Assembly (NCBI GenBank): GCA_024276305.1
Contig: JAJRXK010000108.1
Location: 8,172 to 72,171, forward strand
Source: Candidatus Krumholzibacteriota bacterium
Lineage (GTDB): Bacteria; Krumholzibacteriota; Krumholzibacteriia; JAJRXK01
Direction of reading: 5' to 3'
Length of the DNA stretch: 64,000 bases
Positions 14,348 to 57,795 of this stretch are shown here, piece after piece (positions within the stretch are counted from its first letter, which is position 1; the number at the start of each line of letters is the position of its first letter). Under the pieces are notes generated by a model. The model saw only the letters and a program-made list of their open reading frames with translations, searched no databases and was not told the DNA's origin. The position numbers and the translations under genes are program-made.

Positions 14348-17300
14348 CTAGACTCTGCCGTCCCCGGAGGCAATGGCCCCGCGTCCGAGTCTCCGCCGCA
14401 GGCGGCTGGGGAGGTCGAGGAGATCCTCGAGGATCAAGTAGCCGGAGGGCACCAGGAGAAGGGTCACCACGGTGGAGAAGAGCACCCCGAAGGCCAGACT
14501 CACCGCCAGCGGAATCAGGAATCGGGCCTGCAGGCTGCGTTCGAGCAGGATCGGAGTGAGTCCGGCGAAGGTCGTGACCGAGGTCAGCAGGATGGCCCGG
14601 AAACGGGCCGCTCCGGCGCGGCGCACGGCTTCGTGCATGTCGACTCCCTCGCGGCGCCGGCGATTGACATAGTCGACGAGGACCAGGCTGTCGTTCACCA
14701 CCACGCCGGTCAGGGCCACCATTCCCACCACGCTCAACACGCTCAAGGACATGCCCATCAGGATGTGTCCCCAGATCGCGCCGACCAGTCCGAAGGGGAC
14801 TGCAGTCATGACCACCAGGGCGTGGAGGTAGGAGCGGAAGGGAATGGCCATCATGGCGTAGATCACCATCAGGATGACCGCAAATCCCCGGATCAGCCCG
14901 TGCATGGACTCGCGCTGCTCCTTCTGCTCGCCTTCGATGGTCCAGTTCACCCCCGGATGCCGAGCCAGGATTTCGGGGAGGTCCTTCGAGGTGAGCGATG
15001 CGATCACTTCGGTGGCATTGGCCACTGCGTCGTCGACGTCGGCGGTGACATTGATCACTCGCTGCCGCTGCACCCGGTGGATGGTGGAGAATCCCCGGCC
15101 GAGCTCCGCGCGGGCGACGCGGTACAGGGGGGCTTCGATGCCGCCGGGGAGACGGATGCGCAGCCCCCGCAAGTCCTCGAGACTTCGTCGTCGGGATTGG
15201 GGATAGCGCACCATGACCTTCACTTCGTCTCGTCCCCGCTGAATGCGCTGGGCTTCCGCTCCGTAGAACGCCTGCCGCACCTGGCGGGCCAGATCCGCTT
15301 GGGTCAGTCCCAGGAGTTCCCCCTCGGGCAGGATGTGGAGTTGGACCTCTTGCTTGCCCTGGCGGTAGTTGTCGCGGATGTCCTGCACGCCGGCATAGCC
15401 CGCGAGACGATCCTCGAGTTCCGTGGTCACCGCGGCCAGGGCGTCGAGGTCGTGGGAGGCGAGTTGAATGTCGATGGCCTCGCCGGCCCGGAAGAGCGAG
15501 GATCGGAAGGAGAGGGCGCTGGCTCCCGGAATCTCTCCGCAGCCTTCTCTCCACCGTCGGGCGATTTCGGCCGCGCTCACTTCTCGATCGGCAGAAGGCA
15601 CGAGTTCGAGAGTGACTTCGCCGAGATGCGACCCTTTGAAGTTCCCCTCGGGAGTTCCCATGGGCCCTCCGCTCTCGAGGGCGCTGGGTTGGTCGCCGAC
15701 CGCGGCGTAGGAGTGGAGGATCACCGCCTGGCCTCCGGCCTCCTCGGACAAGCTTCTCTGGAGGTCGGCGGCGACCTTCTCGAGCCGCTCGATGGCCGCG
15801 TTGGTGGCCGCCACCGGAGTCCCGAGGGGCATCTCCAGCGAAGCGGTGATCGATTCGGACTCGACCTCGGGCATGAAGGTGAACTTCAGGAATCCGCCCG
15901 CGACAGAGCCGGCGGTGAGCAGCACGGTGGCGACGCCCGCCGCCACCGCGGTGTAGCGCCATCGCAGACAGAGATCGAGGAAGGGCTGGTAGCGCTCGGC
16001 CACGAAGCGTTCGAGACCTCGGGCCACGGCCTCTTGAATCCGGTACCACCACTGCGTCAGGCCCCGGTGCGAGGGCTGGGTTGGGGACTTCATGTGCTTG
16101 AGATGGGCGGGCAGGATGAGTTGCGATTCGACCAAGGAGAAGATCAACACCGGAATCACGATCAGGGGAATCACTTTCCAGATCTTCCCGGTATTCCCGG
16201 GGATCATGGTCAGCGGGACGAAGGCGGCGACGGTGGTCAGCACTCCGAAGATCACCGGGGTGGCGACCTCTTGAGTTCCCTCGACGGCGGCGCGCACCGC
16301 GTCGCCGTGGCGGCGGTAGTGGGTATAGATGTTTTCGCCCACGACGATGGCATCATCGACCACGATTCCCAACACCAGGATGAAGGCGAAGAGGGTGATC
16401 AGATTGATGGTGACCCCGAGCACCGGCATCAGCCAGATCGCTCCCAAGAAGGACACCGGGATTCCCAGACTCACCCACAGGGCGAGGCGGAAGCGCAGGA
16501 AGAGAGCCAGTACCAGGAACACCAGTACGAGACCGGTCATTCCGTTGCGCAGGAGCAGATCCCGACGGCCCTTGAGGTGGACCGACATGTCGTTCCACAC
16601 CGTCATCTGGATGCCCTCGGGCAACCAGGTCGAGGCCTGGTCGATGTAGTCGTAGACCTTCGACGCGATGTCGATGGCATCTTCGTCGCCGACTCGGTAG
16701 ACCTGCACCATGACCGCACTCTGGTGGTCGAAGCGTGACGACTGATCGGTCTCAGCGAATCCATCGATGACCGTGGCGACCTCCGACAACCCCAGACGGC
16801 TGCCATCCGTCTCCTGCCGCACCGCGATTCGGTCGAAGTCCCGGCCCACGTAGGCTTGGCCCACGCTCCGCACCAAGATCTCGCCCCCTTCGGTCTTGAT
16901 GCTGCCGCCGGGGAGGTCCAAGGAAGAACTCCGCACCGCCTGGACCACTTCGTCGAAGCTCAGGCCCAGACGACGCATCTGACTTTCGCTCAGGGCGATG
17001 GTGATCTCGTAGGGCCGGGCGCTCACGAGGTCGACTTGGGAGATCCCGTCGATGAGAGCCAGCTCGTCACGGACCCTCTCGCCCAACTTCTTGATCGAGA
17101 CTTCGTCCGCCGGGCCGGAGATCGCGACGCTGAGCACCTGGCGTCGCACGACCAACTCGCCGATCACCGGCTTTTCGGCTTCCTCGGGAAAGGTGATGAT
17201 GGCGTCGACCCGGGTCTTCACGTCGTCGAGGACTCGGCGCAGGTCCTCGCCGGGTTTGACCTCGATGGTCACCACCCCGCGGCCCTCGTCGCTGCTCGAC

Positions 17301-17545
17301 CGGATCTCGTCGATGCCGTCCACCCCTTGGACCTGTTCTTCGATCTTGATGCAGATCGACTCCTCGACCTCCGAGGGAGTTGCCCCGGGATAGGGGACGG
17401 TGACCACCACCGCGTCGGCGGAGAATTCGGGGAAGATCTCCTGCCGCAGGGTGAACACCGTGGTCAGCCCCCCCGACAGGACCAGAATCATGAGCACATT
17501 GGCCGCGACGGAATTCTCGGCGAACCAGCGAACCACGCCCTTCAT
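14348..17545 (-). CDS. RND efflux permease (AcrB/HAE1-like)
   Basis: 12-TM RND architecture, about 1065 aa. ATG overlaps the upstream adaptor's stop (ATGA). Confidence 0.9.
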
Positions 17546-18705
17546 CGTTCCGACTCCCCGACCGGCTGAACTCGCATCGCTTCGACCACCGCGGAGAGGG
17601 GGGAGAGGCAAATGCGTTCGCCGTCTTCCAGCCCGCCGGCCAGGATCGTGTCCCTGCGGCCTCGCTGCAGGACTTCGACTTCGCGGATGTCGATGCGGTC
17701 CTGCGCATCCACGACCAGGACCGTGGAGTCGGGTCGAAGGGCGGCGGTGGGAATCCGGATCCCTTCGACCTCTCGTCCCAGGATCTCCGCTTGGACGAAC
17801 ATCCCCACCGCCAGGGGAGTGGTGGTGCCGGTGTTGCGCCCGTAGGGGTCGGCCACTCGCGCCACGAGGTGTACCATTCGGGTGCGGGAGTCGATTTCCG
17901 CTTCACTCCGCTCGATGAATCCTTCCCACTGCCCTTCCCGCTGGGCGAAGTTGCAGCGGAGCACCACTCTCGGGCCGTGGTCCCGAGGCTGGGCCCGGAA
18001 TCCCAGGGGCAGATCGAGGTAGGCCAGATCCGAGTCGGGGATCGGCAGGCGGATCTCCGCGTAGTCCACGGCGTAGACGGTCGCGGCCACCGTTCCCGGA
18101 GCCAGAACATCTCCCAGGTCGACATTCTTCGATCGGATTCGGCCGTCGTAGGGGGCCACGAGGCGACTGCGGTCGAGGTCGCGTCGGGCCTTGTCGACCA
18201 GGGTCTGGGCCGAGGCCACCGCGGCGCGGGCGGAGGCGAGCTGAGGCCGCCGGAGGACCAGATCCGAGGGAGGTCCGCCCTCGAAACTCTCCCACTCCTG
18301 TGCGGCCACGCTCCGTTCCTGGTCTTCGAGGGCCAGGCGAAGCTGGGCCGCCACCAGAGCCTCCTGGGCCTGGGCCAGGGTCACTCGCAGATCCCGATCG
18401 TCGAGGACCAGCAGAGTGTCTCCCTCTTCGAAGAAGGACCCGGGGCGGAAGTGGTCGCTCACGCGGACCACCCGTCCGCCGACTTCGGCCACCAGCCGGC
18501 TGGAGGTCCGAGGACTCACCGTGCCCTGAGTGCGAACGACCAAGCGGTGGGCTGCGAGGCGGACGGTCTGGACCTCCACTGAGGGAACCACTCGAGGACG
18601 GGGTTGGCGGTCGGGTTCGGCCCGTAGGCCGCGAAGCCCTCGCATTCCGAGCCCTCCGACCACGAGGATGAGGATGGGAAGCAGGAGAGGAAGGCGGCGT
18701 CTCAT
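17542..18705 (-). CDS. RND efflux periplasmic adaptor (membrane fusion protein)
   Basis: HlyD/MFP-like sequence. ATG preceded by GAGGTG. N-terminal anchor MRRRLPLLLPILILVV. Confidence 0.85.
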   Translation of the reverse strand: MRRRLPLLLPILILVVGGLGMRGLRGLRAEPDRQPRPRVVPSVEVQTVRLAAHRLVVRTQGTVSPRTSSRLVAEVGGRVVRVSDHFRPGSFFEEGDTLLVLDDRDLRVTLAQAQEALVAAQLRLALEDQERSVAAQEWESFEGGPPSDLVLRRPQLASARAAVASAQTLVDKARRDLDRSRLVAPYDGRIRSKNVDLGDVLAPGTVAATVYAVDYAEIRLPIPDSDLAYLDLPLGFRAQPRDHGPRVVLRCNFAQREGQWEGFIERSEAEIDSRTRMVHLVARVADPYGRNTGTTTPLAVGMFVQAEILGREVEGIRIPTAALRPDSTVLVVDAQDRIDIREVEVLQRGRRDTILAGGLEDGERICLSPLSAVVEAMRVQPVGESER

Positions 18706-49649: not shown

Positions 49650-51416
49650 TCAGGGGGCCGGCATTCGGAGGGCCAGGATTGCTCGCAGCCGGTCGTTCCA
49701 ACTCTTCGGCTGGTCGAGTTCTTCGATGCAGATCGGCATTCGCCATCCCCAGTTCTCGTGGCTGGGAGTTCCCGGCACATTGATTCGCTCGTCGGCCGGA
49801 TCCAGCGGGCGCAGGGTTTCGTCGATGGCGAAGCAGTCGGGCAGCAGCAGCACGCAGAGCATGGAGCTCGTGCGCAGATTCCGTCGCAGAATCATCTCCA
49901 CGGTCTCTCCATCGAGTCGGTCGGGGACCTCTCGGTGACCGTGGATGGCTCGGGTGTAGTAGAGCGTGCGAGTCGCATGGTCCTCTTCTTCCCACCAACC
50001 CCGGATCGACGAGGCGTCGTGCAGTCCCGGAGCGCAGACGCTCAATTCGGGAAAGTGCGCCGGATCCCAGAAGGGCCGGTCCGCCTCGTTCTCGGCCCGA
50101 CACCATCTCTCGACTCGCAGGCCGGGAATGCCCAGATCGTCGAGGACCTCGGGAACGCAGGAGGGCACCGCTCCGAGGTCTTCGGCGCAGAGCAACATCT
50201 CCGTCTCGTGGCGCAAGGCCCCCAGTCTCTCCCTCCCCAACTCTCCCCATCGCCTTTCCCTCTCGGACTCGTTCTGCAGGAAGAGCTCCCGCAGAATCTC
50301 GCGTCGGCTGGGATCGAGGTCCAGGAAGAGGGGTTTCTGTTCCCACTCGAAGCGGAGTCCCCACTGGGTGGGGGTGGCGGGTAGGCGGAGGAGCGGCCCC
50401 TCCGGAGCGGCCAGGGCATCGAGTTCTTCGGAGCGGATCCCGCGGGCCGCGAAGCGGCGAGGATCGAGGGGGAGGGTGGGGACGTAGTGGCCATCTCTGC
50501 CACTGGTGTGGGGGAGGTCGATGCGCCAGATGCGGAAGAACCCCAGTACGTGGTCGATGCGCAGGGCTCGATAGTACTGGGAGGCATGACGAATCCTCCG
50601 GCGCCACCAGGCGTAGCCATCTTCGCGCATTCGCTCCCATCGATAGCAGGGAAATCCCCAGTACTGCCCCTCCTCGCAGTAAATGTCCGGGGGAGCGCCG
50701 GCGCGGCCTTCGAGGTCGAAGAGGTCGCGGTAGAACCAGACGTCGGCACTCTCTTCCTGGAGGAGGATGGGGACATCCCCCTTCAGAGCGACCCCCAGCT
50801 CCTTCAGGCGTTGGGCGCTCGCGAGCAGCTGACGATGGGCGTGGTACTGGACCCAGGTATGGTAGAGCCACTTCCGGTGCCTCGACTGCAGGAGATCTTC
50901 CAGGTCCTGGGGGCGGGGACGGCGGTAGTGCACCCACTCCGACCAGGGACGGCCTTCGTTCTCCTCGAGGAGGATCTTGTAGGCGGCGTAGACGTGGACC
51001 CAGTTCTGCTCGGTGGCGAAGGCCTCGAGTTGGGCCTCGAGGGCCCGGGGATCGAGACTCTCGAAGATCGAAGCCAGGACTCGGGTCTTGGCCGCCAGAA
51101 CGGCGTCGTAGTCCACCCGCGCGGTCTTGGCCAATTTCAGTTGTTCGGCCAGGTAGTCCTCGAGGAAGGTCGGATCGGGGGCGATCTCCTCGATGCAGAG
51201 GTAAATGGGATGGAGGGCCACCGCGCTGACCCCCGCATAGGGCGAGGGGTCGTCCCCGGTGTCCTGGACCGGCAGGATCTGGAGGAGATCGAAGCCCAGT
51301 CCCGCGGCCCACTGGCCGAAGGGAACGAGGTCCGGGTATTCGCCGATCCCGTGGTGACCCCGGCGGAGGGCCGAGAGAGGAGTCGCGACTCCGGTGCGGA
51401 AGGCGGAAGAGTCCAA
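49650..51416 (-). CDS. malQ: 4-alpha-glucanotransferase (amylomaltase, GH77)
   Basis: GH77 signature regions (LRIDHVLGFFR, catalytic Asp/Glu context), 588 aa. Confidence 0.9.
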   Translation of the reverse strand: MDSSAFRTGVATPLSALRRGHHGIGEYPDLVPFGQWAAGLGFDLLQILPVQDTGDDPSPYAGVSAVALHPIYLCIEEIAPDPTFLEDYLAEQLKLAKTARVDYDAVLAAKTRVLASIFESLDPRALEAQLEAFATEQNWVHVYAAYKILLEENEGRPWSEWVHYRRPRPQDLEDLLQSRHRKWLYHTWVQYHAHRQLLASAQRLKELGVALKGDVPILLQEESADVWFYRDLFDLEGRAGAPPDIYCEEGQYWGFPCYRWERMREDGYAWWRRRIRHASQYYRALRIDHVLGFFRIWRIDLPHTSGRDGHYVPTLPLDPRRFAARGIRSEELDALAAPEGPLLRLPATPTQWGLRFEWEQKPLFLDLDPSRREILRELFLQNESERERRWGELGRERLGALRHETEMLLCAEDLGAVPSCVPEVLDDLGIPGLRVERWCRAENEADRPFWDPAHFPELSVCAPGLHDASSIRGWWEEEDHATRTLYYTRAIHGHREVPDRLDGETVEMILRRNLRTSSMLCVLLLPDCFAIDETLRPLDPADERINVPGTPSHENWGWRMPICIEELDQPKSWNDRLRAILALRMPAP

Positions 51417-51424
51417 GGTCGGTC

Positions 51425-52183
51425 TCAGTTCGTGATGGGGAGCGCCTCGGCCACGTCGCCGTAGAGGTGTGCGAGGACCTCCCGCCGAGTGGGAGGAGTG
51501 GGGTATCCGAGTTCGCGGATTCGGTCGCGGATGACCTGCAGCTCTTCGATGGGCGCGTTGTCGACCTCGTCCACCAGGACCTCGTGGGTGAAGCGTCGCA
51601 CCCTCACCTGGAGGCGGCGATCGAAGGTGGCGGACCAGACGATCTTCTGGTCCCTCAGATCGAAGACATCCACGCTGAGTCCCACGTGGTGCCGACTCAA
51701 GAGCTCGATCTCGAAACGAATGCGATCTTCCTGGTCGTAGCGGGTCTGCTCGTGGGTGCGTTCGACCTCATCGATGTCGATGCGTCCGAGCAGGACATAG
51801 CGTCCGAGCGGGCGTCGTCGGGAGAGGGCGCCGAGGGCGGGTGCCGCGAGCCTCGCGCTGCGGGCATATTGGTCGAGAATCCCGGCGTACTCGTCGACAT
51901 CCCCGGCCAGCAGAGCTTGGGCCGGCCCCACCAGAGTCAGAGACGACTCCTCGCTCAGGCGCCGCCGCAGATTCTCCCCGAGGGTCAAGGGATCGTCGGT
52001 GCCGGTGGTGTCGGCGACCGAAGGTGCGACGACCACCGCGCCCACGATCAACCCGCCTTCACGGAGGGCGTGGTCGTCGAAGTCGGGGTCGGTGTAGACC
52101 GCCTTCTGCGCGCCTCCACACCCGACCAGGACGGTCCAGACCAGGAGGGTCCGAGCAGCCCAACCCATTTCCGGCCGGGACAT
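51425..52183 (-). CDS. Hypothetical lipoprotein
   Basis: Lipobox LVGCGG. No recognised domain. Start is either of two nearby ATGs. Confidence 0.5.
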   Translation of the reverse strand: MSRPEMGWAARTLLVWTVLVGCGGAQKAVYTDPDFDDHALREGGLIVGAVVVAPSVADTTGTDDPLTLGENLRRRLSEESSLTLVGPAQALLAGDVDEYAGILDQYARSARLAAPALGALSRRRPLGRYVLLGRIDIDEVERTHEQTRYDQEDRIRFEIELLSRHHVGLSVDVFDLRDQKIVWSATFDRRLQVRVRRFTHEVLVDEVDNAPIEELQVIRDRIRELGYPTPPTRREVLAHLYGDVAEALPITN

Positions 52184-52260
52184 TCGCAGGGGGAGCTTCG
52201 AATTCGGTCTCGACATCCGAGGCTTTCCTTGGAGGAGGTGCGGGCAGAAAGCGCCGAAGT

Positions 52261-53292
52261 CTAGCGTCCCCAGTTCAACAGTGGCAACACTCGTCGTCCG
52301 CGGGGATTGTCCCAGACCACATTCACCAAGCCGACCTGCACTCCGTGCAGCTCTCGGGTGAGGTTGATGAGTCCCACCGACAAGCCGCTCACCCGGGTGT
52401 CGAAACGGTTGTAGGCACTGATGGAGATCCCCTTCAAGCTCACTCCGACGTTGCGCAATCCCGAGAGCGCGATGCCCTCCACCCGGTCGCTGTCCAACCC
52501 CAGTCCCGCGATGGCGACGCCGCGGACTCTCTGGCCCACCGCCAGCCCCAGACCGGCCACCGCGAGGCCGGTGAAGTCACGGCCCACTCCCGCTCCCAGT
52601 CCGGTGACCAGAAGACCGGCGGCCCCTTCTCCGACGCTCATGCCCAGGCCGCTGACGCCGACTCCTCGCAGACGCTCTCCGACTCCCGCTCCCAATCCGG
52701 CCAGGACTACCCCGCCGAAGTCCCGTCCCACGCTCATTCCCAAACCACCGATGATCAGACCTCGGGCGTCGCGACCCACTCCGGCCCCGAGCCCCGCGAT
52801 CGCGATGCCGTCGAAGTCGGTCCCGATGCCCATGCCCACTCCCGCCACCAGAAGTCCCCGGCCGAAGGCCGGGGCCGAACTGTTCTCGGCCCAGCCGGCA
52901 TGACCTCCGCCGATGGCAATGCCCACCAGGCCGACCCCGATCCCGGAGAAACTGCGGGTGGCCTCGATGCCGACCCCCGCGAGATGAATTCCTCGAAGAG
53001 TCTCGGCCCCACTGCCCCAGAGTCCGATCCCCACTCCGTCGACCGTCCCCGACCGCATGGATCGGGACCTCCACAGAGTCAGGTTGAGCCCCCGGATGGT
53101 GTCGAGTTCGTGGTCGTGGAGATTGACGCGAAGCCCGGTCCACCGAGGGGAATTGCCCAGGCTCAGTCCGGTCTGCGAGAAGCCCAGGTCCACCGAGGAG
53201 GCGGAGGTCAGCGATGCCCCCAAGAGCAGGGCCAAGGCCACCGTGACTCCCACCGCTCTCCTCGAGCACCGGGCGGGAATGCGTGGCCTCAC
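52261..53292 (-). CDS. Secreted glycine-rich tandem-repeat protein (about ten 16-residue repeats), family not recognised
   Basis: GTG at 53292 is preceded by GGAG and followed by a signal peptide. Repeats of the form GRDFGGVVLAGLGAGV / GERLRGVGVSGLGMSV / GRDFTGLAVAGLGLAV. Confidence 0.6.
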   Translation of the reverse strand: MRPRIPARCSRRAVGVTVALALLLGASLTSASSVDLGFSQTGLSLGNSPRWTGLRVNLHDHELDTIRGLNLTLWRSRSMRSGTVDGVGIGLWGSGAETLRGIHLAGVGIEATRSFSGIGVGLVGIAIGGGHAGWAENSSAPAFGRGLLVAGVGMGIGTDFDGIAIAGLGAGVGRDARGLIIGGLGMSVGRDFGGVVLAGLGAGVGERLRGVGVSGLGMSVGEGAAGLLVTGLGAGVGRDFTGLAVAGLGLAVGQRVRGVAIAGLGLDSDRVEGIALSGLRNVGVSLKGISISAYNRFDTRVSGLSVGLINLTRELHGVQVGLVNVVWDNPRGRRVLPLLNWGR

Positions 53293-53345
53293 CAGAGGCT
53301 CCGGTCCTATCACGGGCGATCTCCAGGGTGCGGCGGGGGAAGAAT

Positions 53346-55175
53346 TCACAGGATTCCCAATTCCCTCAAGCTCGATTCGAGTTGGGTGACCAGCTGATCG
53401 CAGCGTTGGACCACGTCTTCGATGGGACCTGCTTCGCGTAGATTCACTCCCGCGCGTTGGAGCTGATCGATGGGATGGGAGGAGCTTCCCGATGCCAGGA
53501 GCTCGAGATAGCGTGGGACCACCACCTCGCGATTCTCTCCCTGCATGGCCTTGGCGATCGCCGCGGCCGAGGCGAAGCAAGTCGCGTACTGGTACACGTA
53601 GTAGGGTGTTCGGTAGAGATGGGGAATGCGGGCCCAGGTGAGAGCATAGGCCTCGTCGTGGACGATGGCATCTCCGTAGTAGTCGACCATCAGTTCTCGA
53701 TAGATCTCCGACAGGCTGTCCGCGGTCATGGCCTTCCCCGCTTCGATGTCTCGATGGGCGCGGAGTTCGAAGTCGGCGAAGAGAACCTGGGTGTAGAAGG
53801 TTCCCACCATGCTGTCGATGGCGTGCTGCAAGAGCAGGGTTCGTTCGCCGGGGTCACGGCTCTCGGCGAGGAGATGATCGAGGAGCAGACCCTCGTTCAA
53901 GGTCGATGCCACTTCGGCCACGAAGATGGTGTAGTCGGAGTAGACATAGGGTTGGGCGGCATGAGCGAGGACGGTGTGCATGCTGTGGCCCATCTCATGG
54001 GCCAGGGTGAACATGTCTCCCCGGGTGTCCTTGTAGTTCATCAGGACGTAGGGATGAACGCCGTAGACCGGGGCGCTATAAGCTCCCGACCTCTTCCCGG
54101 CATTCTCGTAGACGTCGATCCAGCCCGACCCGAAGGCCTCCTGCAGGCGGGACTGGTACTGTTCTCCCAAGGGGCGCACCGAGGCCACGATGTGTTCGAC
54201 GGCTTCCTCGTAGGGATAGGAGAGATCGCGGCGGACCAGGGGAACCTGAGAGTCGTAGAGGTGCATCTGCTCGAGGCCGAGGGCCTGTTGGCGCAGCCGG
54301 AGATAGCGCCGGAGAGGTGCGACCGCACTGCGGGTCGTCTCGATCAGGTTCTCGACCACCGCGGTGGGGATGGCATCGCCGTCGAGTGAGGCCTCGAGGG
54401 TCGACGCATAGCCTCGACTGCGGGCGAAGAACCAGTCCCGATGACATACTGCGCTGTAGAGGGCCGCATAGGTGTTCCGGTGATTCTCGAAGACCCCGTA
54501 GAGGGCTTCGAAGGCGGCGCGGCGATCCTTCTGGGAGGCACTGGTGCTCAGCAAGTGGTGGTAGGTCGAATAGGTGAGGGTGATTTCTTCCCCACTCTCG
54601 AGGACGATCCGGGGCCACTTGATGTCGGCACCACTCAGCATCGAGTAGGCTTCCCGGGGGGCGTTCGCGAGTTGAGAGGTGTAGCTGAGGAGGGTCTCTC
54701 GGGCTTCGTCGAGGACGTGTCGCTGTTGACGGAAGAGATCCGAGAGATAGAAGCGGTAGGGACCGAGCCGAGGATCTTCGGTGCACCAACGATCGACGCA
54801 CTCTTCCCCGAGGGCGAGGAGTTGGGGACGAAACCAGGCGGTCGCCGTTCCGGCCCGGGCCAGAAGCTCGGTCACCCGTTGTTTGTGGGCGGCGATCTCG
54901 TTGCGTCGGAGGTCCTCGTCGTGCATGAGCGCCGGATACCACCACACCCGTTGCGCCGCTTCGTCGATGCTGTCGTTGAGGCTCAAGATCTCGACCAAGG
55001 TCGATGCCCCCTCGGCCACTCGGCCCTGGAAGGCCTGCATCCGGTCGATCTGCTCTTCCAGAGACTTCATCGCCGTGTCCCAGGCGTCGAAGTTCTCGAA
55101 GATCTGCTCCAGCTTCCATCGCCGGTCGGCTGGAATCTGCTCACGAGGGAGAGGTTTCGTCGCCGTGGACGGCAT
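53346..55175 (-). CDS. pepF: Oligoendopeptidase F (M3B family)
   Basis: HEMGH zinc motif. M3 fold-length protein. ATG at 55175. Confidence 0.85.
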   Translation of the reverse strand: MPSTATKPLPREQIPADRRWKLEQIFENFDAWDTAMKSLEEQIDRMQAFQGRVAEGASTLVEILSLNDSIDEAAQRVWWYPALMHDEDLRRNEIAAHKQRVTELLARAGTATAWFRPQLLALGEECVDRWCTEDPRLGPYRFYLSDLFRQQRHVLDEARETLLSYTSQLANAPREAYSMLSGADIKWPRIVLESGEEITLTYSTYHHLLSTSASQKDRRAAFEALYGVFENHRNTYAALYSAVCHRDWFFARSRGYASTLEASLDGDAIPTAVVENLIETTRSAVAPLRRYLRLRQQALGLEQMHLYDSQVPLVRRDLSYPYEEAVEHIVASVRPLGEQYQSRLQEAFGSGWIDVYENAGKRSGAYSAPVYGVHPYVLMNYKDTRGDMFTLAHEMGHSMHTVLAHAAQPYVYSDYTIFVAEVASTLNEGLLLDHLLAESRDPGERTLLLQHAIDSMVGTFYTQVLFADFELRAHRDIEAGKAMTADSLSEIYRELMVDYYGDAIVHDEAYALTWARIPHLYRTPYYVYQYATCFASAAAIAKAMQGENREVVVPRYLELLASGSSSHPIDQLQRAGVNLREAGPIEDVVQRCDQLVTQLESSLRELGIL

Positions 55176-55386
55176 CGTGGTGCTCCATTCTTGGGCGAGA
55201 AGGCGGTGATGGCCCCAGAATTGCAAAAACCTTCGGATGCAGCGGAAGCCCGCCGACGCCGGAGGCGCCAACCGCAACCAAAGTACTCGAAGGAGGGGGA
55301 TTCGGCTCTCGCTCCTTCGATTCGAAGGGACTAGGGTGGCGATTCGACAACCCAGTTCGTCGACGACCGGCCCGCCTCTTTCCGGG

Positions 55387-57795
55387 ATGGAGATGGCGAG
55401 AGCCCTCGCCCGAGGCTCGGGGATCGCGGAGATCATCCGCCCCATTCTCGACCACATCGCCTTCCGCTGCGGTCGGGAAGCGATCGCTCTCTACGAACTC
55501 TCCGAGTCCGGAGGGAGCCGGCGAGTGGCCGCGGTCGGAAGCCTGGCCGCGGGAGAGGGGCAGGTGCCGGTGGCCCTGTTTCCGCTCCTGCATCAGGTCC
55601 TGAAGACGGGCCAGCCCCGAAGCCTGGAGTCTTCGGTGCTCGAGGAGGAGCTGCGCGGCACGCCTTATCAGCTCCTCCGGAGTGCAACCCTCCTTCCCAT
55701 CTCGGTGACCGACGATCTCGGCGCGGTCTTGGCTCTCGGAGACCCGATCCGTTCCGAGGCCGAGGACGAGGGTCGGGATCTCGTCACCGAACTGAGCTGC
55801 GAAGTGGGAACCTTGGCCCTCGTCCTCGTGCACCAAGCCCATGCCCAGCCTCTGCATCGAGGAGTAGAAGCCGAGCCGGATCCCACCGAGCGCATGTTGG
55901 CCCTGACGACCTTGAGAGACATGATTCCCCAGGTGGTGTTGGTCAAGGACCTCGAGAACCGGGTGTTGTGGGCGAATCGCCGGGCCGAGGAGTTCTACCA
56001 TCTGCGTCGGGAGCAGATGGAAGGCGAATTCCTCTGGGAGATCGATCCTCTCAACGCGGCCCAGTCCTACCGGGCCGATCTGGCCGTTCTCGAATCGGGG
56101 GAGGCCCAGTCGGGCTCGTTGGAGTGCATCACCGGGATGCAGGGCGAAGAGGTCTGGCTCCGAGTGGATCGAGCTCCGGTCTTCGGAGATGGGGGCCGGA
56201 TCGTGGCCGTGGTCACCGCCGCCGAGGAGGTCAGCGATCAGCTGCGCTCGGCCGAAGCACTCCGGCAGCGGGAAGAGGACGCATCCCGGGCCGAACGCCG
56301 CCGGGACCAGTATCTCCTGGCCCTGGCCAGCGAAGTTCGGGAGCCCTTGGTGCAGGCCCAGCGACGCCTGGCCCAGTTGCGAAGCTCCGAAGAAGATTCC
56401 GCCCTCGCCCAGGCCCTCGACGCGATCCTCGAGATTCAACAGCAGTCCCTGTCCAACATTCAGGATCTCCTCGATTTCTCGCGGGTGGAGAATGGCAACC
56501 TGGCCATCCAGACCTACGATTTCGACCTCGAGGAGATCGTCTGGGACGTGCTTTCGGCCTGCGAGCGAAGTGCGCGGCGCCGAGGCATCGAATTGGCGAG
56601 CCGAGTCGCTCCGGAATGCCCGACCCGGGTTGCCGGCGATGCCAGCCGGGTCCGCCAGATCTTGATCCAGATCGTGGGATGTGCGCTGCGGGTGGCGCGA
56701 GGCGGAGAGGTCTTTCTGCTCTGTTCTCCTCTCGGCGAAGATCGCACCGCGCCTCTTCTGCGATTCGAAGTGCGCGCCCCGTCGTCGAATCTCAATCTCC
56801 AGGAGCTCGAGGAGTATTTCGCGGCCTACCGCAGCGACGTGGCTGCCGGCGAAGCGGTGGATTCGACCCACGAACTCCGGCTGGCCCTGGCCCGGACGCT
56901 GACCCGTCTGCTGGGAGGCGAGGTCGACGTGGAGATTGCCGCCGATCGCAGTTTCGTGTGTCGGTGTCAGATTCCTCTGCGCCGCCCCATCGATCTGGGG
57001 GTTGTCGGCGCGAGTGCTCTCCCCCGGGCGGGAGCACGAGTCCTGCTCTGCGAACCGAATGCGAATATGCGAGCCATTCACGATCAGCGTCTGCGAGATC
57101 TACAGATGGTCGTCGACACCGCCTCCCAGCCGAGGGTGGGAGCGGAGATGGTGCGGGCGGCCTTCCAATCGGGGTGGCCCTACGACGTCGTGATCTGCGA
57201 GCGCTCCGACGAGGGGCAGGATTCCCAGCTCGCGACCGCGGTGGACGAGGTCGGTCGAGGAACCATGGTCTGGATGATGGACGGTCGCCCCTCGAGGGAA
57301 GAGATCGAGAGCGGTGAAGTGCTCCGTCTCCCCTGGCGGCAGAACGATCTCCGTGAGCTCCTCTGCCGAAGTTGTGGAGCCCAATCGGGAGAGGTCGATC
57401 TGCGTTCCGGCCACGAAGGGGAGCGCAGTTTTCTGGTGGTGGACGACGATCCCGTGCGGGCCCAGGTGACGGCGTTCGCCTTGCGGCGGATCGGTGGAAG
57501 CGTGTGGGTGGCGTCGAAGCAGGAGGAGGCCCTCGACCAGATCGAGCGCAGGGACTTCGACCTGGTGATCGTGGACGAGGACTGGCTCGCGCGGGGACAC
57601 GAAAGCATCGTCGACGATCTGCGCCGTCTGGAGGGGAGTCAGCGTCGCACCCGCATCGCGGTGGGAGTCCACGAAGTGGATCCGGCGCGAGTGGAAGAGC
57701 TGGCCGCCCGCGGATTCGATGGGCTCATCGGGAAGCCCCTCGACGTCGACGCCCTCTTTCGCATCCTTGCCTGCGGTGGGATGGTGACCCTCTGA
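55387..57795 (+). CDS. Hybrid sensor protein: GAF-PAS, degenerate (pseudo) HisKA/HATPase, degenerate receiver, then intact receiver
   Basis: H-box reads ASEVREPL (no His). N, G1 and G2 boxes are replaced (CALRVA, APSSNL, ELRLAL). The first REC-like domain lacks the acidic pocket (LLCEPNA, ICERSD). The final REC is intact (LVVDDDP, DLVIVDED, GKPLD). Confidence 0.75.
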   Translation: MEMARALARGSGIAEIIRPILDHIAFRCGREAIALYELSESGGSRRVAAVGSLAAGEGQVPVALFPLLHQVLKTGQPRSLESSVLEEELRGTPYQLLRSATLLPISVTDDLGAVLALGDPIRSEAEDEGRDLVTELSCEVGTLALVLVHQAHAQPLHRGVEAEPDPTERMLALTTLRDMIPQVVLVKDLENRVLWANRRAEEFYHLRREQMEGEFLWEIDPLNAAQSYRADLAVLESGEAQSGSLECITGMQGEEVWLRVDRAPVFGDGGRIVAVVTAAEEVSDQLRSAEALRQREEDASRAERRRDQYLLALASEVREPLVQAQRRLAQLRSSEEDSALAQALDAILEIQQQSLSNIQDLLDFSRVENGNLAIQTYDFDLEEIVWDVLSACERSARRRGIELASRVAPECPTRVAGDASRVRQILIQIVGCALRVARGGEVFLLCSPLGEDRTAPLLRFEVRAPSSNLNLQELEEYFAAYRSDVAAGEAVDSTHELRLALARTLTRLLGGEVDVEIAADRSFVCRCQIPLRRPIDLGVVGASALPRAGARVLLCEPNANMRAIHDQRLRDLQMVVDTASQPRVGAEMVRAAFQSGWPYDVVICERSDEGQDSQLATAVDEVGRGTMVWMMDGRPSREEIESGEVLRLPWRQNDLRELLCRSCGAQSGEVDLRSGHEGERSFLVVDDDPVRAQVTAFALRRIGGSVWVASKQEEALDQIERRDFDLVIVDEDWLARGHESIVDDLRRLEGSQRRTRIAVGVHEVDPARVEELAARGFDGLIGKPLDVDALFRILACGGMVTL

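Follow-up and report, generated by a model that had tools for sequence, protein, structure and literature searches.

The minus-strand frame at 52261-53292 of the window (the whole stretch of DNA analysed, 64,000 nucleotides; all features below lie on the minus strand unless indicated otherwise) is a genuine gene that encodes an exported protein, which is confidently predicted from its structural model to be a rod-shaped β-solenoid of 16-residue glycine-rich coils. With a probability of about 60%, the protein is a Sec-exported, single-domain, non-enzymatic β-solenoid rod of the cell envelope, the function of which we infer. The complete CDS encodes 343 aa plus a stop codon from a GTG start, with a GGAG motif 8-11 nt 5' of it. 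A chance open frame, i.e. the low-complexity translation of 65% GC DNA with no real protein behind it, could be argued from the 23% glycine of the product and from the long ORFs that overlap it in several of the remaining frames, e.g. 51841-53397 on the plus strand (518 aa), but the GC3 of 0.79 is that of the adjoining genes, the AF2 model is confident and synteny with the oligoendopeptidase F gene (pepF) is found in two relatives. Above all, thousands of full-length homologues of 30-56% identity, spread over many phyla and sharing conserved non-glycine motifs, refute this reading and leave it next to no probability.

The family is large: clustering at 50% identity gives at least 8,474 clusters at E ≤ 1e-3 and 418 at E ≤ 1e-30. 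Among the candidates scored, 299 were homologues at E ≤ 1e-3 (best E 1e-101), and the phyla represented comprise Gemmatimonadota, Calditrichota, Latescibacterota, Ignavibacteria, Planctomycetota and Acidobacteriota; Melioribacter, Gemmatimonas and Phycisphaera are among the genera in which it occurs. Scanning the genome collection with a five-sequence alignment recovered 47 loci, throughout in metagenome-assembled genomes of poorly studied phyla, and the same scan with the single protein as query gave no match; a tblastn search against plasmids gave none either. Within the window, the stretch 16544-17317, a paralogue candidate with 24% identity (E 0.007), was set aside as a compositional match, being an in-frame part of an ORF of 1087 aa (14348-17611) whose sequence resembles an RND-type efflux pump.

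Regarding the repeat itself, nine in-register units of 16 residues occupy aa 141-284 (52441..52872), as delimited by lag-16 identity, AF2 strands, the family consensus and length steps. Seven of them are canonical (G-x-D/E-x-x-G-h-x-h-x-G-L-G-x-x-V; aa 157-268, starting at aa 157, 173, 189, 205, 221, 237 and 253 in one register) and two, at aa 141 and 269, are degenerate; the initial annotation, which had counted about ten, was thus right about every unit it quoted and about the single register, but not about the number. Its picture of a protein dominated by repeats with a glycine/aliphatic period of 16 residues is borne out by a lag-16 identity of 0.41 in aa 141-284 against 0.146±0.028 in shuffles (maximum 0.25 in 2000 shuffles), with all other lags in 13-19 at or below 0.20; over the whole protein the value is 0.214 against 0.103±0.016 in shuffles. 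The 48-bp periodicity, which had been proposed as a check, is present at the DNA level as well, weak but real (lag-48 identity 0.497 against 0.361±0.023 in codon shuffles), and Tandem Repeats Finder, run on 51500-54000, reported no repeat within the gene, since the repeat is too diverged in DNA. Identical residue pairs at lag 16 share the same codon in 18 of 52 cases, for 19.6 expected from codon usage; as codon sharing is no commoner than codon usage predicts, the array is, by this sequence measure, an old repeat kept by selection at the protein level, with no recent duplication.

Across 663 units of the family, Gly stands at positions 1, 6, 11 and 13 in 100% and at position 15 in 93%, positions 4, 7, 9, 12, 14 and 16 accept aliphatic or small residues only, and positions 2, 3, 5 and 8 hold polar or mixed residues. 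In the alignment of close relatives, gaps span exactly 16 columns, and the distance between the N- and C-terminal motifs, taken over 227 homologues, peaks at 222, 238, 254, 270, 286, 302 and 317, with 45% of the values falling within 2 of 16 residue classes. Since this end-to-end distance varies in 16-residue steps across homologues, one unit is most likely one solenoid coil.

The AF2 prediction built from 91 sequences is all-β, with a pLDDT of 92.8 and a pTM of 0.82 (five of five models above 91), scores to be read with the caveat that AF2 can be over-confident on repeats. Over aa 143-277, a strict E8-2-E4-2 strand pattern recurs every 16 residues (pLDDT 96-98); in the model, such unequal strands and two-residue turns would fit stacked parallel coils, unlike an antiparallel meander or a barrel. 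The top PDB matches in Foldseek are nearly all β-helices, namely MpAFP, LpxD/LpxA, isopullulanase and EtpA, none of them significant, and no significant structural neighbour was found in PDB and BFVD (best PDB E 0.69, TM ~0.3; best BFVD E 3.8e-3, TM 0.18). A PDB sequence search with the single protein gave no match, and matches of the family profile to the mitoribosomal uS11m and to SurA (E 0.005-0.27) were dismissed as compositional noise. Given the model confidence and these fold matches, the β-solenoid put forward in the initial annotation is the best reading.

The best PDB match being 3p4g, a Ca2+-dependent β-helical antifreeze, a solenoid binding Ca2+, ice or minerals, of the RTX β-roll, MpAFP region IV or ice-nucleation type, had to be weighed. 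In this direction also point the Asp or Asn found at position 3, after G-x-G-G, in 57% of the 663 units (Asp alone in 36%), and the modelling of ice-nucleation proteins with one 16-residue repeat per coil (PMC9418140). Such a binding role is nonetheless very improbable: the 3p4g match is not significant (E 0.69, TM 0.28-0.31, 12% identity), Pfam HemolysinCabind and Ice_nucleation have no match at E ≤ 10, position 3 is Asp in only four of the seven canonical units of this protein, with Arg or Gly in the rest, and the sequence is devoid of TxT or SLT ladders (no TxT motif within the repeat units) as well as of the GGxGxD nonapeptide.

Export is indicated by a signal peptide at aa 1-33 (53194..53292; MRPRIPARCSRR / AVGVTVALALLLGASL / TSASS), read from the sequence as being of the Sec/SPase I type, with a basic n-region, a hydrophobic core of ~16 residues, an A-S-S cleavage region and no lipobox Cys; AF2 places a helix at aa 11-31 of this leader, with low pLDDT. 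Among homologues the hydrophobic leader varies and the alignment sets in at the mature 'SLDL'; about 3 of 234 instead have a convincing lipobox (a loose pattern picks out 6). By these features the repeat protein is Sec-exported, and the term secreted used for it at first holds in the sense of Sec export only.

The N-terminal conserved region, aa 34-140 (52873..53193), is made of irregular units of 15-18 residues, recognized by invariant or near-invariant columns and by AF2 strands, and contains the best-conserved non-glycine residues of the family (R55, N57, D60, N70, T72 and W74). Its strands at aa 34-127 reach a pLDDT of 82-97 and are followed by a low-confidence loop at ~aa 128-142 (pLDDT 59 for the block 131-140). 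The C-terminal conserved region, aa 285-343 (52264..52440), is defined by invariant residues (N310, G317, Q319, G321, N324 and P337) and a fixed-length tail, and exhibits the motifs SAYN, G-L-x-h-G-L-h-N, L-x-G-V-Q-h-G-L-h-N and N-P...R-V-L-P-h-h-N-W. Family-wide, the invariant residues are nearly all Gly, Asn or Gln.

No Pfam family matched the window protein at E ≤ 10 and none matched across 91 aligned members, apart from five single-member chance matches (best E 0.011); filamentous haemagglutinin, GLUG and bactofilin, the known repeat families named beforehand as possible matches, are absent from both searches. Ten longer relatives contain no fused domain in Pfam. One relative of 644 aa (P0122) looks by eye like a read-through artefact. 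The initial statement that the protein belongs to no recognized family is correct for Pfam but not for NCBIfam, as aa 303-325 (52318..52386) pass the model NF047436 (LA_2272 family surface repeat) with 26.4 bits (E 4.4e-6; the curated cut-off is 25), a margin that is narrow in this protein; the model matches 72 of the 91 homologues (best E 1.4e-10). A single stretch passes, and by eye a second, weaker G-x-Q-x-G-L-x-N copy precedes it in the family consensus. NF047437 (VC2662 family, equivalog) matches below threshold, aligning aa 191-325 to model positions 41-171 of 187, and has matches in 81 of the 91 members (best E 5.8e-13); 28.1 bits, where an equivalog needs 140, designate the protein as a relative of the VC2662 family and no member of it. 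For NF047435 (LA_2272/LA_2273 family lipoprotein), the score is 18.4 bits against a cut-off of 30 and the lipobox Cys is missing, which places the protein outside that family. From these profile matches, the repeat protein is distantly related to the uncharacterized LA_2272 (Leptospira) and VC2662 (Vibrio) families. In the searchable literature, no mention of the NCBIfam family names was found, and LA_2272, LA2273 and VC2662 are mentioned in passing only: LA2272 and LA2273 were threaded on the β-helix templates 1dab and 1air (PMC2387172), and expression of the VC2662 protein is documented for V. cholerae (PMC10865864).

In 255 homologues, the tail after the last G-x-Q-x-G-x-x-N motif always has 24-33 residues, 27-29 in ~80% of cases, and follows the pattern [RK]-h-L-P-h-h-N-[W/F/Y/h]-x-[F/L/R], e.g. 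NFNF, NAHFD, NLNL or NWGR, the present protein ending in LPLLNWGR. Of these homologues, 66 end in F and 169 have an aromatic residue among the last four. This fixed length and these terminal aromatics are what speaks for a conserved tail acting as a β-signal, that is for an outer-membrane protein handled by BAM, either an integral β-barrel or a solenoid tethered by its last strand. The genomes found all belong to two-membrane phyla, a point counted on the same side. In-silico studies of Leptospira further name LA_2272 and LA2273 as outer-membrane candidates, and the increase of VC2662 together with OmpT, OmpA and OmpV in the ΔompU proteome (PMC10865864) was counted likewise. An outer-membrane protein of this kind is still unlikely, as a transmembrane barrel would need longer and less regular strands than those of the array, with their 8 and 4 residues and two-residue turns, the fold matches include no porin or OMP barrel, the exposed positions 2, 3, 5 and 8 are polar and have no lipid-facing character, and many tails, including NWGR here, extend past the aromatic residue where the canonical β-signal has a terminal Phe.

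The points counted against the envelope rod itself include the OMP-like C-terminal tail, which might indicate a function tied to the membrane instead. They also include the colony phenotype of a V. cholerae ΔompU ΔVC2662 double mutant, which equals that of the ΔompU strain in the one assay reported (PMC10865864).

As for the genomic context, the location first described, between a lipoprotein gene and oligoendopeptidase F, is correct: pepF lies upstream (53346..55175; TIGR00181 at 589 bits, Peptidase_M3) and the gene of a predicted lipoprotein of 263 aa downstream (51425..52216; lipobox LVGC), the latter with no Pfam or NCBIfam match. Only L001 and L006, the two loci closest to this one, have pepF next to the repeat gene, the lipoprotein homologue in L001 (30.6% identity) resides beside malQ, four genes from the repeat gene, and three distant relatives have unrelated neighbour genes. 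An operon link to pepF or to the lipoprotein gene was rejected on these grounds; the adjacency to pepF is lineage synteny, and the gene neighbourhood of the family is not conserved.

The neighbourhoods examined contain no transporter or secretion partner, which argues against a secreted adhesin or a self-polymerizing extracellular fibre, such as a two-partner-secretion (TPS) haemagglutinin, a functional amyloid or the head of a trimeric autotransporter. A repetitive solenoid architecture, weak fold matches to the EtpA TPS domain, the word 'surface' in the NCBI name of the LA_2272 repeat and a few lipoprotein homologues with long disordered linkers, suggestive of display away from the membrane, would all suit such a protein. 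It is quite doubtful here, since TPS, autotransporter, curli, Fap and T9SS domains are absent from the window protein and the 91 members (Pfam), the mature protein is small (~310 residues) and the EtpA matches have E values of ~7-8 and a TM of 0.2.

Returning to the envelope rod, a stand-alone and non-enzymatic nature is supported, at the level of sequence comparison, by the variable neighbourhood, the lack of any Pfam domain in the 91 members and the 10 longer relatives, and invariant residues that are mostly Gly, Asn or Gln. Once the signal peptide is cleaved, the chain is predicted, with strong support, to wind into roughly 18 coils, of which the nine central ones are the 16-residue units. 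The glycines at positions 1, 6 and 10/11 mark the shifts in the in/out register of the hydrophobic positions and are read as coil corners; the aliphatic positions 4, 7, 9, 12, 14 and 16 are read as buried and the polar positions 2, 3, 5 and 8 as exposed. In this model the central coils serve as a spacer of variable length, homologues differing by whole coils, between an N-terminal end carrying the conserved polar R-x-N-x-x-D and N-x-T-x-W and a C-terminal end with the conserved Asn/Gln motifs and the fixed LPxxN[W/F/Y] tail, both of which would be capping and/or anchoring sites. In the silk-like G-L-G-A-G-A strand (positions 11-16), one side is all Gly and the other all aliphatic, giving an unusually constrained flat surface, and this strand face would most likely pack against another copy of the protein or an envelope component. 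If it does pack on a partner, the protein would be a structural or scaffolding element; we infer a scaffolding role, like self-association, solely from the pattern of conservation.

Beyond this, a broader and rather improbable proposal can be formulated, in which this protein would be the first example of a widespread, hitherto undescribed class of glycine-faced β-solenoid envelope rods with 16-residue coils and an OMP-like C-terminal sorting or anchoring tail. Such rods might self-assemble via the silk-like G-x-G-x-G face or be tethered to the outer membrane, the number of coils setting an envelope dimension in FCB-group phyla, Planctomycetota and Acidobacteriota, with shortened cousins in Vibrio (VC2662) and Leptospira (LA_2272). 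If the Gly/aliphatic strand is an assembly interface and the fixed tail acts in sorting, the family would represent an envelope building block of a new kind and would also offer protein engineering a compact scaffold whose length can be tuned; otherwise, a large family with no Pfam model and a predicted fold with no significant PDB neighbour is still a well-defined target, both for a new model of the family and for a first structure.

Among known systems, left-handed β-helix acyltransferases (LpxA/LpxD), bactofilins and pentapeptide-repeat proteins also form small solenoids, in which the core is aliphatic and small residues occupy the corners, and LpxD and LpxA are among the weak fold matches (TM 0.10-0.14), but these proteins are cytoplasmic with coils of 18-20 residues, and Hexapep, Bactofilin and Pentapeptide have no Pfam match in the window protein at E ≤ 10. 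MpAFP region IV (3p4g, the top-ranked PDB match) and RTX β-rolls share the glycine-rich turns and an Asp/Asn after G-x-G, whereas their coils have 19 or 18 residues instead of 16 and the Asp is not conserved here; by the RTX criterion of GGxGxDxUx nonapeptides with a conserved Asp (HemolysinCabind), the protein does not belong among them, Asp reaching 36% at position 3 family-wide. The ice-nucleation proteins InaZ and PbINP also have one 16-residue repeat per coil and a variable number of coils (PMC9418140), a correspondence that for the present protein comes from the period of 16, the AF2 strand pattern and the 16-residue length steps. Their consensus (AGYGSTQTAGEESSLT) nevertheless has no sequence similarity to the one found here (GGDLTGIAIGGLGAGA), which is devoid of TxT/SLT water-ordering ladders, of a Tyr ladder and of an Ice_nucleation Pfam match, and they contain 50-80 such coils against 9 here. 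The LA_2272/LA_2273 proteins are equally exported, all-β and uncharacterized, and the stretch G-L-x-h-G-L-h-N...L-x-G-V-Q-h-G-L-h-N fits the 30-position repeat model NF047436; the 16-residue array and the N-terminal region lie outside that model, of which one stretch matches, and in contrast to the lipoprotein form (NF047435) this protein has no lipobox. With VC2662 (NF047437), five coils plus the C-terminal motif can be aligned (aa 191-325), while members of the present family have roughly double the length and a conserved N-terminal region of their own.

The 343-residue repeat protein is encoded on the minus strand at 52261-53292, from a GTG start with a GGAG lying 8-11 nt 5' of it, and the GC3 of the gene (0.79) resembles that of pepF, malQ and the adjoining lipoprotein gene. 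The 16-residue repeat described in the initial annotation is confirmed, with an identity at lag 16 of 0.41 over residues 141-284 vs. 0.146±0.028 upon shuffling (0 of 2000 shuffles above 0.25) and of 0.214 vs. 0.103±0.016 over the whole protein. When the sequence is printed with 16 residues per line, canonical units start at residues 157, 173, 189, 205, 221, 237, and 253, and degenerate units at residues 141 and 269. The 48-nt periodicity expected to accompany it is present in the DNA (lag-48 identity of 0.497 vs. 0.361±0.023 for codon shuffles) but weak, and Tandem Repeats Finder reports no repeat inside the gene. Besides, the same codon is found in 18 of the 52 residue pairs identical at lag 16, close to the 19.6 predicted by codon usage alone, which leads to rejecting recent duplication as the origin of the array. 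The array is thus ancient and maintained by selection on the protein.

Regarding the fold, AlphaFold2 run on an alignment of 91 sequences gave a mean pLDDT of 92.8 and a pTM of 0.82, all five models exceeding 91, with the leader as a helix (residues 11-31) and the remainder as beta strand. Residues 143-277 are modelled at pLDDT 96-98 as a strict succession of an 8-residue strand, two residues, a 4-residue strand and two residues, i.e. a period of 16; such unequal strands with two-residue turns would correspond to stacked parallel coils rather than to an antiparallel meander or a transmembrane barrel. In 227 homologues, the distance between the N- and C-terminal motifs peaks at 222, 238, 254, 270, 286, 302, and 317 residues, two of the 16 residue classes holding 45% of the values (vs. 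12.5% expected), and gaps of exactly 16 columns separate close relatives in the alignment; these two independent observations agree that one 16-residue unit is one coil. The larger length peaks (222, 254, 286) follow one another at 32-residue steps, weaker ones falling in between, and GLGMSV and GLGAGV alternate between successive units over residues 173-268 (52489-52776, minus strand), which together hint at a two-coil super-repeat of 32 residues. Against solved structures, Foldseek found no significant neighbour, the best match being the Ca2+-dependent beta-helical antifreeze protein 3p4g (E 0.69, TM 0.28-0.31); the top matches, likewise non-significant, are nearly all beta-helices, namely LpxD/LpxA, isopullulanase, EtpA and ice-binding proteins, and the viral structure library yielded nothing usable. 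A solenoid binding Ca2+, ice or mineral could be read from this non-significant fold match and from Asp/Asn residues that are partly conserved, and is considered very unlikely. The beta-solenoid put forward at first is supported by the modelled strand pattern, the 16-step length peaks and the beta-helical type of the fold matches. Its handedness, its cross-section and the way its G-x-G-x-G strand faces are inferred features rather than observed ones.

In a search of 5.8 billion proteins, 299 of the scored candidates proved to be relatives at E<=1e-3, the closest one at E 1e-101 and 56% identity; all those bearing a name are labelled hypothetical protein and none of the 299 contains a Pfam domain. 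With such homologues, the possibility that the gene is an artefact is excluded for practical purposes. A family profile built from 91 relatives matched 8,474 representative clusters (50% identity) at E<=1e-3, a count whose weak tail may be inflated by glycine-rich composition, including 3,247 at E<=1e-10 and 418 at E<=1e-30. Genome matches are metagenome-assembled genomes (MAGs) throughout, the closest locus being in the MAG contig CAZQHE010000044.1, and belong to Gemmatimonadota (including Longimicrobiales), Calditrichota, Krumholzibacteriota, Latescibacterota, Ignavibacteriales and Melioribacter, Bacteroidetes, Planctomycetota and Phycisphaerae, as well as Aminicenantes and Acidobacteriota.

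The family layout comprises a conserved N-terminal region, a variable array of 16-residue units and a conserved C-terminal region. The first follows SLDL...G-I-S-I-G-N-S-x-R-x-T-G-L-R-x-N-F-R-D...G-x-N-x-T-x-W, with R55 invariant and N57, D60, N70, T72, and W74 at least 90% conserved; the last follows S-A-x-N...G-L-x-I-G-x-x-N...L-x-G-V-Q-x-G-L-x-N...N-P...R-V-L-P-x-x-N, with N310, Q319, N324, and P337 invariant. A consensus taken over 663 units reads G-[G/E]-[D/N]-h-[T/R]-G-h-x-h-[G/A]-G-L-G-h-G-[A/V], where glycine occupies positions 1, 6, 11, and 13 in 100% and position 15 in 93% of cases, positions 4, 7, 9, 12, 14, and 16 are exclusively aliphatic or small, and positions 2, 3, 5, and 8 are polar or mixed. 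Of note, homologues P0203 and P0263 carry an N-terminal extension of ~190 residues without Pfam match before the solenoid. In P0238 and P0204, a lipobox precedes a long linker, which is rich in Q in the former, and the linker of P0128 is acidic. Such extras suggest display away from a membrane.

In all 255 homologues considered, the chain stops soon after L-P-x-x-N; its tails, for instance NFNF, NAHFD, NLNL or NWGR, follow the pattern [RK]-h-L-P-h-h-N-[W/F/Y]-x-[F/L/R], and in ~80% of them the end lies 27-29 residues past the last G-x-Q-x-G-x-x-N motif. This tail (residues 332-343, 52264-52300, minus strand) resembles the beta-signal of outer-membrane proteins, the final residue being F in 66/255 and an aromatic residue occurring within the last four in 169/255. 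An outer-membrane or BAM-linked protein nevertheless appears unlikely, since residues follow the aromatic one in many tails and both strand lengths and fold matches speak against a barrel.

A Sec-exported, single-domain solenoid of roughly 18 coils, with a central part of variable length between homologues and both ends conserved, is strongly supported. The usual solenoid rise being 4.8 Å per coil, the modelled rod would be about 85-90 Å long. Glycines at positions 1, 6, and 10/11 would form the coil corners, because it is there that the hydrophobic positions change their in/out register, and the six aliphatic positions of each unit would be buried. The strand G11-L-G-A-G-A16 would alternate as in silk fibroin, one side all glycine and the other all aliphatic. 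Conservation so strict on a strand side expected to be free to vary suggests that it packs against another copy, in dimers or sheets, or against another envelope component; self-assembly specifically is a tentative proposal, rather doubtful at present. As Gly, Asn and Gln make up nearly all of the invariant residues, and as neither a catalytic-looking constellation nor a fused domain was found in the protein, it is best read as a structural element, a spacer or a scaffold.

The minus-strand order is pepF, the repeat gene, a lipobox-containing (LVGC) ORF of 263 residues (51425-52216), malQ and an NHL/thioredoxin gene. L001 and L006, the two closest loci, are the only ones in which pepF (60-61% identical) adjoins the repeat gene; the homologue of the lipoprotein gene in L001 adjoins malQ, four genes away, and three distant relatives have unrelated neighbours. 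These adjacencies not being kept, the repeat gene stands alone. In the loci compared, it is accompanied by no secretion partner, transporter or enzyme, and an adhesin or extracellular fibre, lacking any secretion partner or domain, is quite improbable. The lipobox ORF has no Pfam or NCBIfam match and its sole homologue detected among the fetched loci is that of L001 (30.6% identity). A sigma-70-like promoter match (52258-52287, minus strand; TTGCCA, 18-nt spacer, TAGACT; 9/12) overlaps the repeat-gene end just upstream of this ORF, and no terminator-like site occurs in 51300-55600. Divergent from pepF lies a long ORF (55237-57795, plus strand), the equivalent position in L001 being occupied by a histidine-kinase gene (HAMP, HisKA, HATPase_c). 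Elsewhere, an ORF of 1087 residues (14348-17611, minus strand) looks by eye like an RND-type efflux pump; its tblastn match to the repeat protein (24% identity) was dismissed as spurious, arising from G/L/V-rich membrane segments. Over the whole 64-kb window (65.3% GC), there is neither a tRNA nor a tmRNA gene, and no Rfam family reaches its gathering threshold.

As for known families, the protein has no Pfam match at E<=10, the 91 members show just five single-member chance matches, and no fused Pfam domain occurs in 10 longer relatives; filamentous haemagglutinin, GLUG and bactofilin, the families named in the initial annotation as refuting it, consequently do not apply. The view that it matches no family nonetheless requires correction, as the C-terminal motif (residues 303-325) passes NF047436, the NCBIfam domain model of the LA_2272 family surface repeat (26.4 bits vs. 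a cut-off of 25; 72/91 relatives, best E 1.4e-10). Residues 191-325 match the VC2662 family equivalog NF047437 below threshold (28 bits vs. 140; 81/91 relatives, best E 5.8e-13), and the lipoprotein form NF047435 fails (18.4 bits vs. 30); no curated model passed for the 16-residue array and the N-terminal region. From these matches, the protein shares a superfamily with the LA_2272 and VC2662 families, the latter a distant relative, and is the equivalog of neither. An exported structural solenoid of this superfamily is the favoured reading, with a probability of about 0.6.

Published information is sparse, and in the library searched no paper uses the NCBIfam family names. LA2272 and LA2273 come from in-silico surface-protein screens only and were threaded on the beta-helix templates 1dab and 1air (PMC2387172; PMC5348505), while VC2662 is enriched in the proteome of a V. 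cholerae ΔompU mutant, colonies of the ΔompU ΔVC2662 double mutant not differing in phenotype from those of the ΔompU strain (PMC10865864). Ice-nucleation proteins, in which one 16-residue repeat is modelled as one solenoid coil (PMC9418140), have no sequence relation to this protein, and their TxT ladders are absent here. These findings overturn no expectation, but the protein is well suited for building a family model and for solving a first structure. The LA_2272 and VC2662 families are already curated and uncharacterised. The subfamily of the repeat protein is large, Pfam-less and of distinct architecture, and its predicted fold has no significant solved neighbour.
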